The position numbers were made by a program, and so were the translations under genes. A stretch of 64,000 bases of DNA from Octopus vulgaris. Its lineage: Eukaryota. The stretch lies in assembly GCA_951406725.2 (NCBI GenBank), contig OX597818.1, positions 25,172,001 to 25,236,000 of the forward strand, read 5' to 3'. The notes below the pieces were generated by a model. That model worked only from the letters and a program-made list of their open reading frames with translations, was not told the DNA's origin and ran no database searches. Below are positions 1 through 36,784 of this stretch, piece after piece; the stretch's first letter is position 1, and every line of letters begins with the position of its first letter.

Positions 1-470
1 TACATACATATATATACATACATACATATATATATACATACATACATATACATACATATAAACATATACATACATATAAACATATACATACATACATACA
101 TATATATACATACATACATATATATACATACATACATACATATATATACATACATACATATATATACATACATATATATATATACATACATACATATATA
201 TACATACATATATATACATACATATATATACATACATATATATACATACATATATATACATATATATACATACATATATATACATACATATATATACATA
301 CATATATATACATACATATATATACATACATATATATACATATATATACATATATATACATATATATATATATATATATATACATACATATATATATATA
401 TACATATATATATATATATATACATATATATATATATATATATACATATATATATATATATACATACATA
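1..470. repeat. Compound (TA)n/(TACA)n microsatellite
   Basis: Direct reading: TA, TACA and occasional TAAA units, with C-containing variants on the + strand. Confidence 0.97.
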
Positions 471-2254
471 TGATTTGATTTGATTTGATTTTGATTTTTC
501 CAGTTTCAGCTAATGAGCTGTGGCCATGCTGGGGCACCACCATTTGGTTTGCTACACGATTTTACCTCACGGATGCTTTTTAGCACACGCCATCTAATGC
601 ATGAGAGAGTTCAATGCAGCTGCCCTCATCTGCACCTCCTGCCGTGAAGTTGGTTCATCCGGGACACCTGACAGGAAGAGGTCCAGTCCTACTTTAAAGA
701 CATCCGCATCTACACCATGCAGGACCCTCAGGTTCTTTGGGAGGATATTGAAGAGCTGTGGGCCTCTGAAGCCCAGGCTATCACAATATCTTGTCCTACA
801 TCTTGATGGCAAATTTGGAGTCCTTGGTACTACACAGTGGCGCCCGGTTCTGGCATTTGTGTGACTCTCGATGCCAAAGTTTGGGACAAGTCCTTCCAGG
901 ATCTTCCAGATATATATTATGGCATATCTTTCTCGCCTACGCTCCAGGGAATGGAGCTTTAATCTCTTGAGTCTTTCCCAGTAGCTCATATGTTGCACAG
1001 AGGCTATCTTCTTCGTGTAGCTTCGTTGGATCGCCTCAAGTTCTGTGATCAACTTGACACTGGATGGTGACCATAGCTGAGAGCAATAGTCAAAATGGCT
1101 TAGGACAAGTGTCTTCCAGAGGACCATCATGGTTTCTTGTTCTCTTGTTCTAAGAATCCAGCCAGCCAGCCGTCTACATTTCATTGCCAGTTTAGCAACA
1201 TGTACATGAAAGGTCGCGTCATCACTCATGTGAATACCCAAGTCACGCACTGATTGCGCCTCTGGGATTGCAATCCCTCCGGGTCCAGTGTATTCATTGG
1301 GTATTGCATTCAGTTTTGCATACTGATAGTATAAAGCTTGAAACTTTTCAGCATTGAACTGCATGCTATTCTTTTCAGCCCACTTGTATATTTCGTCCAG
1401 CTCACATTGCAGGTGCTTAGTGTCTTCAGGGTTCTGTATTGCCTGTGAGACTTTTGCATCATCTGCATAACTTGTGATCGTGGCTCTCTGCGTGGCTGAG
1501 GGCATGTCCGAGAGGGCCATTATGAACAGTAGTGGTCCCAAAACAGTGCCCTGCGGAACACCGCTCACTATTTGCGTGTTAATGGAAGTGGCCCCATTGG
1601 CTGTTACCACCTGACTTCTATTCGTCAGAAAGTCATGAAGCCATTCTCCAAATTTTCCAACTATGCCAAGATCACGCAGTTTGTGACATATCATTCCATG
1701 ATCGACTTTATCAAAGGCCTTTGCGAAGTCGAGATATATGACTTCCACATTTGAGTGGTTGAGCAGTTGTTTCAGCACCCAGTCATAGTGCTGTAGGAGC
1801 TGAGTTAAGCAGCTTCTTCCTGGTCGGAAACCATGTTGGGTGTCAGGCAGCAAGTCATTTTCTTCAAGGAAGGTGATTAGTTTCCTGCTGACTATTCATT
1901 CCATGACCTTGCTGATGTGTGAGGTTAGGCAGATAGGTCTGTAGTTCTTGGCCTCTGCTCTGCTACCTCCTTTATGCATAGGGCTATTTTACCTTCCTTC
2001 AGTTTACTTGGAAGTTTGCCAGTTGCAAGGAAGCTCTGAAAGAGAGACCGCAGTGGCCTTGCTAGGACCCTCTTACATACTTTTAGAAGGATTGCTGGGA
2101 ATCCATCGGGGCCAGTAGCTGAGTTTGTTTCCATTTCATCTATAGCCTTTATTACATCGTCTTCCTTTATATTGATATAATCAATCATCGCTGCCTCTGA
2201 CCCCATATCTGCAGTGGTGAAGAAGTCAGTTGGATTGCTGATTTGGAAATGCCC
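471..2254 (-). mobile_element. 5'-truncated CR1/L2-group LINE, subfamily A (RT region plus 3' end), decayed
   Basis: ORF 594-1853 and the end of ORF 1925-5953 carry RT motifs [45 protein letters not shown] and the CR1-type C-terminus [13 protein letters not shown]. It has a frameshift near 1990, an in-frame stop near 1899 and a 9-nt deletion (ILRT-REQE). The tail is (AAATC)n at 471-497 and both flanks are TA repeat. Confidence 0.92.
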
Positions 2255-5200
2255 ATATATATATATATACATACATATATATATATACATACATATATAT
2301 ATACATACATATATATATATATACATACATATATACATACATATATATATATATACATACATATATATATATACATACATACATATACATACATACATAC
2401 ATATATATATATATACATACATATACATACATACATATATATATACATACATATACATACATACATATATATATACATACATATACATACATACATACAT
2501 ATATATATACATACATATATATATATATACATACATATATATATACATACATATATATATATATATACATATACATACATATATATATACATACATATAT
2601 ACATATATATATATATATACATATACATACATATATATATACATACATACATATATATATACATACATACATATATATATACATACATACATATATATAT
2701 ATACATACATACATATATATATATATATACATATACATACATATATATATACATACATACATATATATATACATACATACATATATACATACATACATAC
2801 ATACATACATACATATATACATACATATATATATATATACATATACATACATATATATATATATACATACATACATATATATATACATACATACATATAT
2901 ACATACATACATATATACATACATATATACACATATACATACATATATATATACATACATATATATATACATACATATATACATACATACATACATATAT
3001 ATATACATATATATATATATATATATATACATACATACATACATATATATATATACATACATACATATATATATACATACATATATACATACATATATAT
3101 ATACATATATATATACATACATACATACATATATATATATATACATACATACATATATATATATACATACATACATATATATATATACATACATATATAT
3201 ATATACATACATACATATATACATACATACATATATATATACATACATACATACATATATACATACATATATATAAACATACATACATATATACATACAT
3301 ATATATAAACATACATACATAAATATATACATACATATATATACATACATACATATATATATACATACATATATACATACATACATACATATATATATAC
3401 ATACATATATACATACATACATACATATATATATACATACATATATATATACATACATATATATATACATACATATATATAAACATACATATATACATAC
3501 ATATATATAAACATACATATATACATACATACATATATACATACATACATATATATATACATACATATATACATACATATATATATACATACATATATAT
3601 ATACATACATATATATATACATACATATATATATACATACATACATACATACATATATATACATACATATATATACATACATACATATATATACATACAT
3701 ATATATATATACATACATACATATACATACAAACATATATATACATACATATATATATATATATACATACATATATATACATACATACATATATATACAA
3801 ACATATATATACATACATATATATACATAAATACATATATATACAAACATATATATACATAAATACATATATATATATATACATACATATATATATACAT
3901 ACATATATATATACATACATATACATACATATATATATACATACATACATATATATACATACATACATATATATACATACATACATATATATACATACAT
4001 ATATACATATACATACATATATATATATACATACATACATACATATATATATATACAAACATATATATATACAAACATATATATATACGTACATATATAT
4101 ATACATACATATATATATATACATACATACATATATATATACATACATACATATATATATACATACATACATAAATATATACATACATACATATATATAT
4201 ACATACATACATATATATATACATACATACATATATATACATATATATATATACATACATATATATATACATACATATATATATACATACATACATATAT
4301 ACATACATACATATACATACATATATATATACATACATACATATATACATACATACATATACATACATATATATATACATACATACATATATACATAAAT
4401 ATATATATAAACATACAAACATATATACATAAATATATATATATATATACATACATACATATATACATACATATATATACATACATACATATATACATAC
4501 ATATATATACATACATACATATATACATAAATATATATACATACATACATATATACATAAATATATATACATACATACATATATACATAAATATATATAC
4601 ATACATACATATATACATAAATATATATATATATACATACATACATATATACATACTTATATATATATACATATATAGATACATACATATATACATACTT
4701 ATATATATATACATACATATATATACATACATACATATATACATACATATATACATACATATATACATACATACATATATACATACATATATACATACAT
4801 ACATATATACATACATACATATATATATATATATACATACATATATATATATATACATACATACATATATATATATATATACATACATATATATATATAC
4901 ATACATATATATATATACATACATACATATATATATATACATACATACATATATATATATATACATACATACATATATATATATATACATACATACATAC
5001 ATATATATATATACATACATATATATATATATATACATACATATATATATATATATACATACATACATATATATATATATATACATACATACATATATAT
5101 ATATATATATATATACATACATACATATATATATATATACATACATACATATACATACATACATACATACATATATACATACATACATATATACATACAT

Positions 5201-35290: not shown

Positions 35291-36636
35291 ACGGGATGCC
35301 CCTGGGAGCTCCTCTATGCCGATGACCTAGCTCTCATAGCAGAATCACTACCGGAACTAGAAGAGAAATTTCGGGTGTGGAAGCAAGGGTTGGAATCAAA
35401 GGGCCTTAGAATAAATGTAGCAAAGACCAAAGTATTAGTAAGCAGCAAGAGGTACTCAGCACACATCCCCTCGGGTAGGTGGCCCTGCTCAACCTGTAGG
35501 AAAGGTACAGGTAGAAACTCCATAAGATGCACCCAATGTAAGTTATGGACACATAAGAGGTGCAGCAACATTAAAGGGAAATTAACAGATAAGATAGCTT
35601 TCATGTGCGGCAGATGCACAGGGACAATAGACACAACAGACACTCAGAAAACAGATTCCATCACACTCCAGGGAGAGAAACTAGAAGTAGTTGATAGTTT
35701 CCGCTACCTGGGAGACCAAGTTAGTAGCGGAGGTGGATGCACAGAGAGTATCACCACTAGAATACGAATAGCCTGGGCAAAGTTCAGAAAGCTCCTACCC
35801 CTACTGGCAACAAAAGGTCTCTCCCTCAGAGCAAAAGGTAGATTGTATAATGCATGTGTGCGAACTGCCATGCTTCACGGTAATGAAACATGGGCTGTGA
35901 CTGCAGAAGACATGCGTAGACTTGAAAGAAATGAAGCTAGCATGATCCGCTGGATGTGTAGTGTCAGTGTGCACGCAAAACAGAGTGTAAGTATCCTGAG
36001 AGAAATGCTGGATATAAGAAGCATCAGATGTGGTGTGCAAGAGCGACGCTTGCGATGGTATGGTCATGTGCTGCGGATGGATGAAGAGAGATGTGTGAAG
36101 AAGTGCCACTCCCAAACAGTTGAAGGTATCAGGGGGAGAGGTAGACCCAGGAAGACATGGGATGAGGTGGTCAAGCATGACCTCAGAGCATTGGGCCTCA
36201 CTGAGGCAATGGCGAAGGACCGAGATCTCTGGAGATATGCTGTGACTACAAAGACCCGGGCTGCTTTCTGCAGCAATTCCACATACCCCCTACCCATTCT
36301 AAGTACCCCGGATCCCCAAAGTACCTTGGATCCCCAAAGTACCCCGATCCCCAAAGTACCCCGGACCTCATTGCCCCCGTGCCGCTGACACGTTAAAATG
36401 CTCGAACCGATCGTGACGATGCCGGACCCTCCGGCCCCTGTGCAGGTGGCACGTAAAAAGCACCCAATCCACTCACGGAGTGGTTGGCGTTAGGAAGGGC
36501 ATCCAGCCGTAGAAACTCTGCCAGATTCAGACTGGAGCCTGGAGCGGCCCCTGGCTTCCCAGACCCGGTCAAACCGTCCAACCCGTGCTAGCGCGGAAAG
36601 CAGACGTTAAACGATGATGATGATGATGATGATGAT
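35291..36636 (+). mobile_element. 5'-truncated RTE-clade LINE with internal PHD finger, inserted in TA repeat
   Basis: ORF 35255-36388: [41 protein letters not shown]; 3' end AGGAAGGGCATCCAGCCGTAGAAAC...GTTAAAC(GAT)n. Confidence 0.92.
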
Positions 36637-36784
36637 ATATATATATATAAATATATATTTACATATATATATATATATATATTTATATATATATATATAT
36701 ATATATATATTTACATATATATATATATATTTACATATATATATATATATTTACATATATATACATATATATATATACATACAA

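Follow-up and report, generated by a model that had tools for sequence, protein, structure and literature searches.

The window considered here is a stretch of 64,000 nucleotides (nt) from the Octopus vulgaris assembly GCA_951406725.2, contig OX597818.1, positions 25,172,001 to 25,236,000 of the forward strand. Its left part holds a real cluster of independent insertions of long interspersed nuclear elements (LINEs) in a real, if previously overstated, array of TA/CATA simple repeat. A preference for TA in one of the clades involved, which we take to be CR1-like, is plausible. The suggestion that three unrelated clades have converged on (TA)n as their target is unsupported by this locus.

A preliminary description of this DNA spoke of a (TA)n tract of about 37 kb. 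That figure has to be reduced, and the repeat in it is compound. Positions 1 to 36,780 are made up of about 16.5 kb of reliable TA/CATA repeat (16,472 bases in sum, about 12% C), 10.7 kb of LINEs (10,655 bases), a scaffold gap of 100 N (30,155-30,254) and 9.6 kb of noisy or mirrored sequence. The left clean part (1-20,600), which extends past the left end of the window, contains 12,855 repeat bases and six LINE islands. Breaks in its purine-pyrimidine alternation amount to 0-2.2% in each of seven segments, and C stays on the plus strand all along. The same polarity is found in the right part (30,255-36,781), with 3,617 repeat bases and two further elements, termed A3 and RTE below. On the plus strand CATA occurs 1,781 times in the repeat versus 13 times for TATG. 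Pure TA runs in the clean array are at most 134 bases long, TATA sites in the array number more than 4,000, and the spacers between LINE islands measure 0.7-3.8 kb. The inventory of islands given earlier holds: leaving mirror copies aside there are eight, six of them CR1-like, one HERO-like and one RTE-like, and TA/CATA repeat does flank all eight on both sides. None of the eight interrupts another. All are LINE 3' parts; no Mutator-like element with terminal inverted repeats is among them.

The noisy sequence with its mirror arm occupies 20,601-30,154 (9,554 bases) and runs up to the N gap. Near 22,400, its turning point, the polarity of the repeat reverses, and beyond it two left-hand elements, B2 and the HERO-like copy, recur inverted on the plus strand (24,636-24,937 and 26,836-30,148) with nearly equal truncation points. 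Alternation is broken at 11-20% in this part, against 0% in the matching left arm. The spacer between B2 and the HERO-like copy is 2,505 bases long with 0% breaks on the left, and 1,898 bases long with 20% breaks in the mirror. Ten differences separate the HERO-like mirror from its counterpart, four of them single-base insertions or deletions that break the frame. Directly after the gap, the repeat is closest to 19,965-20,600 (distance 0.35, with the next at 0.66, among 33 left-hand windows).

Two facts make us fairly confident that the 9.6-kb mirror is a long-read fold-back artefact at a contig end: it stops where the contig does, and beyond the gap the repeat most closely resembles the stretch that precedes the noise. 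Against this it must be said that a true inverted duplication would yield an equally noisy second arm. In nanopore reads of inverted duplicates the second arm is shorter and error-rich (PMC7229812), as is the arm 22,400-30,154. That report deals with true inverted duplications, unlike the chimeric fold-back at a contig end that we infer here. About a quarter of the 37 kb is thus likely to be a sequencing mirror. The probable fold-back in the scaffold duplicates a near-intact element of the restriction-like endonuclease (RLE) type, and it inflates both tract length and copy counts.

The CR1-like label of the six similar islands comes from the preliminary description and is adopted here as an assumption, database hits being unnamed or 'hypothetical'. 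A1 (471-2255, minus strand) comprises a reverse transcriptase and a 3' end with an (AAATC)n tail, and is 92% identical to A3 (31943-33508, minus), which has an unbroken frame and an (AATC)n tail. A2 (6054-6189, plus) consists of the final ~135 bases of an A-type LINE, 84-87% identical to the 3' ends of A1 and A3, with an (AAACAT)n-like tail. The single copy of subfamily C (8066-8690, plus) has a frame of 158 residues. Subfamily B is represented by B1 (9362-10924, minus), with one in-frame stop and a (AAAAGAGT)n tail, and by B2 (19644-19964, minus), the final ~320 bases of a B-type LINE. B2 is 98% identical to B1, and the possibility that it is a duplicate of B1 was rejected: its truncation point differs, and two substitutions are common to B2 and its mirror and not found in B1. 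All six copies are 5'-truncated; five carry tandem tails, and C ends short and AT-rich. The Pfam domain RVT_1 was found in A1, A3 and B1, while C and the C-terminal frame of B1 fall beyond the domain. All six begin too far downstream to include an N-terminal apurinic/apyrimidinic endonuclease (APE) in the second open reading frame; two longer relatives (43-48% identity) carry Exo_endo_phos_2.

Nucleotide identity is about 70% between A and B, 77-78% between A and C and 70% between B and C; C and A are 77% identical in protein. Judged by sequence, A, B and C would form one clade with a common 3' motif. Their treatment as separate lineages was therefore rejected, and they are counted as one. The 3' hairpins of A, B, C and a short interspersed nuclear element (SINE)-like repeat to the right of the array are alike in sequence, though taken singly no fold out of six reaches significance (z -0.02 to -1.81). 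The best named matches to the A3 reverse transcriptase are from Argonauta. A few further observations concern these families. A short TA-rich patch near the 5' end of C (8120-8160) may be secondary slippage or a small insertion. Two longer relatives of A/B/C (L002:2-1447 and L052:2-1480) have a first open reading frame with CCCH-type zinc-finger motifs, matched weakly in Pfam (E 0.002-0.05). The A3 family is abundant in two public contig sets, with 31,282 records in 40.6 million and 26,675 in 52.2 million; the raw-read runs X21 and X22, which bear the species label of the best-matching data set, gave 4 and 7 A3 reads of 12.9 million each, which is uninformative. Runs with a word share below 0.5 were left out of this count. 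Viral contigs yielded no relatives of the CR1-like or the HERO-like family.

The HERO-like copy (13824-17138, minus) is a 5'-truncated LINE of the RLE type with an open frame of 1,041 residues. This single frame comprises a reverse transcriptase, a CCHC knuckle and a C-terminal restriction-like endonuclease of the PD-(D/E)xK type. R2 structures and proteins came top in a profile search (E 1e-42); the matches to the knuckle (E 0.87) and to the nuclease (E 0.003) are weak. HERO is again a name taken from the preliminary description and assumed here, the closest matches (up to 72%) being unnamed or 'uncharacterized'. Many relatives at about 70% exist in public assemblies, one named (Aplysia, 67%); for the CR1-like family, relatives outside octopods are at about 50%. 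Slow evolution or horizontal transfer would be candidate causes of this closeness. Prokaryotic genome contigs gave eight weak matches to the HERO alignment, without usable flanks, and no clade information was gained from Atlas searches. The remaining island (35291-36634, plus), presumably an RTE element by a label of the same origin, is 5'-truncated, with an open frame of 367 residues and a (GAT)n tail. It shows RVT_1 below the cut-off together with a PHD-like finger, and its identity is 75-83% to three copies outside the array and 71% to a fourth.

The junctions indicate what came first. Both are TA in all eight copies, and in seven of the eight the tail is a non-TA motif; the HERO-like copy has no visible tail distinct from TA. 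An array seeded by LINE tails was considered and rejected: tails that are not TA do not seed the array directly, and TA stands on both sides of every copy. Apart from these tails, the locus gave no evidence either way on the feedback loop of the preliminary description, in which insertions and tract expansion would create more target. The variant ATTTACA occurs within the array only at 34,957-35,283 and 36,657-36,749, either side of the RTE element. Since the tails are not TA, the truncation points differ and the RTE element splits a local variant, the eight insertions look independent of one another and younger than the array. Relative to the constant C strand three are in plus and five in minus orientation, a mixture expected for a palindromic TA site. 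The 3' end is intact in all eight and followed by a short tail in seven. Microhomology of 1-3 nt is present at the 5' junction in all four testable copies, with C (unalignable) and A1, B1 and HERO (no longer copy) left out; the longer references used are 78-98% identical and are not the donors. When flanks are paired at random, such pairs are less similar than the two flanks of one and the same element (782 of 40,320 permutations, p=0.019).

Might the array instead be a product of assembly, in which unrelated TA-flanked loci have been chained through their repeats? The region does have a gap and a mirror that can be demonstrated, reads or contigs that span the islands did not turn up (A3 only was examined), and an assembler would likewise join only repeats of the same polarity. 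On the other hand, the clean segments combine few alternation breaks with locally distinct variants, the flanks match across elements, and the repeat after the gap finds its best match in the repeat before the noise. Even if the loci were chained, each element would stay TA-flanked. We consider such a concatenation very improbable.

No A/B/C or HERO copy is present in the remaining 27 kb (36,782-64,000), where the sole nucleotide match is a 3' motif of 19-26 nt in the SINE-like repeat. The earlier statement that the young CR1/L2-group and HERO elements are absent to the right of the array is, in this respect, correct. How surprising the distribution is depends on the unit of counting. For the CR1-like copies, six of six in the array, p is 0.003 per base, 0.11 per TA site and 0.40 per TATA site; if the HERO-like copy is included (7/7), it is 0.34 per TATA site. 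As the enrichment per base disappears per TA or TATA site, a preference for short TA/TATA motifs suffices. Enrichment beyond such a preference, by which a microsatellite-specific LINE would be recognized, was not found, with small numbers and low power. The RTE family behaves differently, with one of its five LINE copies in the array and four outside (Fisher test of 7 in and 0 out for CR1-like and HERO-like versus 1 in and 4 out for RTE, p=0.010). RTE was accordingly rejected as a TA-targeted clade, and its copy in the array is likely a passenger. Of the convergent targeting proposed in the preliminary description, two points fit the data, namely that the insertions went into an array already there and that the CR1-like elements favour TA to some degree. 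Convergence of three clades does not: four of five RTE copies lie elsewhere, the HERO-like element occurs just once, A, B and C make up one lineage, and a short TA/TATA preference explains the counts.

The explanation that we prefer, and to which we would tentatively give slightly less than an even chance, is that the CR1-like nuclease nicks and primes at short TA sites, and that copies gather in the array because it offers such sites densely within neutral intronic DNA. The intron would be that of PEX19, whose first coding exon lies at 41,026-41,319 on the minus strand (100% identity to Octopus sinensis PEX19 over 99% of a 98-residue query). A tblastn search with the full protein matches this exon alone, and no later exon was found in the window. 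As the gene reads toward lower coordinates, where the array lies, and the window yields no further exon, the array is probably situated in intron 1. That intron is apparently longer than 41 kb.

If insertion followed the standard scheme of target-primed reverse transcription, the CR1-like endonuclease would nick inside a TA run, and the RNA tail would pair with the cut end through its last 1-3 bases (A, TA or AT). Synthesis of complementary DNA would then halt early, and its 5' end would be joined via 1-3 bases of microhomology. An intronic array would tolerate such insertions, and slippage would erode older ones, leaving only fairly young copies to be seen. Perhaps the HERO-like family also uses short TA sites.

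Another suggestion is that there is no site preference at all. On this view (TA)n makes up much of coleoid genomes, and a neutral intronic array would accumulate and retain young insertions of any family, the window having been picked as an outlier. In a squid, (AT)n accounts for more than 10% of the genome (PMC9068888), and for Drosophila Waldo-A/B passive accumulation near CA repeats has been put forward (PMC3812793). The RTE family is common outside the array and has a copy inside it too, and the right-hand side is without a clearly young LINE of any family. Against this suggestion stands the per-base probability for the CR1-like copies, and RTE, which is reported to have expanded in octopuses (PMC8967140), accounts for just one of the eight insertions in the array. 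We regard it as quite unlikely.

The structure of the array, not the specificity of any enzyme, could also be the cause. Hairpins or cruciforms in TA runs, breaks or nucleosome exclusion would then capture whatever LINE is active. TA runs form cruciforms and break, and such a hot spot would accommodate an array shared by three types of nuclease or clade, insertion in either orientation and the microhomology at 5' junctions. It fits less well with the intact 3' ends and short tails, which are typical of normal target priming, with a family mix skewed away from RTE, or with a clean array that C interrupts throughout and whose pure TA runs are short. For these reasons it is, in our view, distinctly improbable.

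Strict (TA)n targeting goes further than the short-site preference that we favour. It would have evolved twice, in an octopod CR1-like clade with an APE and in a HERO-like family with an RLE, RTE being a passenger. All seven copies of the two families are in the array and none in the 27 kb outside it; the SINE-like repeat with the A/B/C 3' motif likewise sits in alternating TA/CA/TG repeat; and some HERO families are microsatellite-specific (PMC4640811). In A-family contigs, 2 or 3 of 12 listed inserts between joints are TA-like, a weak hint. However, the counts are within the per-TATA expectation, HERO is one copy, and distant members of the clade are without a TA flank in 75 of 76 cases, though short-read contigs would under-report such flanks. 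Strict targeting is for us an unlikely reading of this locus.

Several observations weigh against the short-site preference itself. The window was picked for its cluster, and it is a single locus. Only two of eight copies have a candidate target-site duplication that exceeds the local null (RTE 0.0025; A1 0.03, uncorrected); in the other six it is indistinguishable from the repeat. The RTE candidate measures 31 bases (35,261-35,291 and 36,635-36,665), and its sequence is found twice more on the left, so that we may be dealing with a unit of the local repeat instead of a duplication. Distant CR1-like relatives at metagenomic loci (38-50% identity) have TA directly after the tail in 1 of 76, and a run of four TA or AT units in the downstream 400 bases in 3 of 76, so that no target common to related families emerged. 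Of these 76, 46 have at least 200 bases downstream (4 of 80 loci, without the C-terminus, were left out), and contigs from short-read metagenomes would under-report TA flanks. In the A3-family contig sets none of the 12 loose-end rows listed is a TA run; a further 1,035 rows fell outside the listing, and 19 tail rows were left out. The RTE copies outside the array carry stops or frameshifts or are short fragments; hence the contrast between families may be one of age.

The sequence to the right of the array, said earlier to hold only older CR1 fragments, has a different content: four RTE-family pieces (two of ~3 kb), an RTE-tailed short repeat, RLE-type fragments, the SINE-like repeat, a satellite and PEX19 exon 1. 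Queries of the CR1 group match only RTE reverse transcriptases there, and older CR1 fragments were thus not confirmed. The SINE-like repeat (39,570-39,985, minus) has the A/B/C hairpin motif at its 3' end (88% over 26 bases), is placed in degenerate alternating TA/CA/TG repeat, and is likely a partner SINE of the A/B/C clade. The satellite (37,837-39,511, 1.7 kb) has a 28-base period with 57 copies and 92% matches; it consists of TA with TG and TTCAC interruptions and is without a LINE. A degraded RLE-type fragment at 55,181-56,135 (plus), with (CATA)n on both sides, is a candidate for a CATA-directed element outside the main array. By its motifs we take it to be Dong/R4-like; it has no Pfam match, and in the Atlas it falls with unnamed mollusc clusters. 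A second degraded RLE-type fragment, at 43,900-45,620, includes a 196-base inverted duplicate (43,940-44,135 and 44,567-44,762, 98% identity). The two ~3-kb RTE copies (47,955-51,124, minus, and 59,787-62,880, plus) are inverted to each other, 82% identical and truncated at nearly the same 5' point. Rfam gave 117 matches on 35,200-64,000, all under the gathering score and nearly all on simple repeats. No transfer RNA was found.

LINEs directed at microsatellites have precedents, and so do arrays of mixed transposons on (TA)n. Retrotransposons without long terminal repeats that are specific to a microsatellite include Waldo (ACAY), Mino (AC), Kibi (TC), Koshi (TTC) and Dong (TAA) (PMC3812793), as well as Togen (TG) and some HERO families (PMC4640811). 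Like these, the octopus elements are LINEs with one simple repeat on both sides, and there are known examples of both the APE and the RLE type. They differ in that neither a (TA)n target nor a CR1-like family appears in the available parts of those lists, and in that specificity there was established from many copies, the octopus case being one locus. In O. vulgaris itself the active LINE groups are RTE, Dong-R4, CR1, L1-Tx1, Hero and R2, with 13 recently active families for CR1, 13 for RTE and two for Hero, and transposable element hot spots have been mapped (PMC13282606). CR1, RTE and Hero, the names assumed here for the elements of the array, are all among them; the available text reports no target-site or microsatellite preference, and the available parts of PMC10700109, PMC13580325 and PMC9115989 contain nothing on target sites. 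The literature covered does not describe any CR1-like LINE, or any LINE of octopus, that targets (TA)n; a description may exist in Repbase Reports, in Kojima and Fujiwara 2004, or in the supplement and Zenodo library of PMC13282606.

If the CR1-like family does prefer (TA)n, it would extend the few microsatellite-directed LINEs by one lineage and one target, both of them new. It would also join two traits of coleoids, high (AT)n and active LINE and SINE families, and would mean that short-read assemblies under-count such families.

The closest parallel to the array as a whole comes from plants. SaTar arrays of guayule and rice are composed of non-nested elements of mixed families joined by (TA)n (PMC5907723), and the mt-MITEs of pineapple (PMC8449440) and MuTAnT (PMC4486113) are comparable (TA)n-linked systems. 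Expansion of the flanks after insertion has been proposed for arrays of this type. The octopus array resembles SaTar in its mixed-family, non-nested elements spaced by (TA)n. Unlike SaTar, which consists of short plant DNA transposons of the Mutator type with short spacers, it contains 5'-truncated LINEs of an animal, set 0.7-3.8 kb apart. One may go further and speculate that the CR1-like clade with its partner SINEs and the unrelated HERO-like family are each truly (TA)n-specific, multi-kilobase TA arrays serving genome-wide as shared, non-nested landing pads. We think this doubtful. If it is correct, the octopus arrays would be the counterpart, among animal LINEs, of the SaTar arrays of plants, and they might drive the very high share of (AT)n in the genomes of coleoids.

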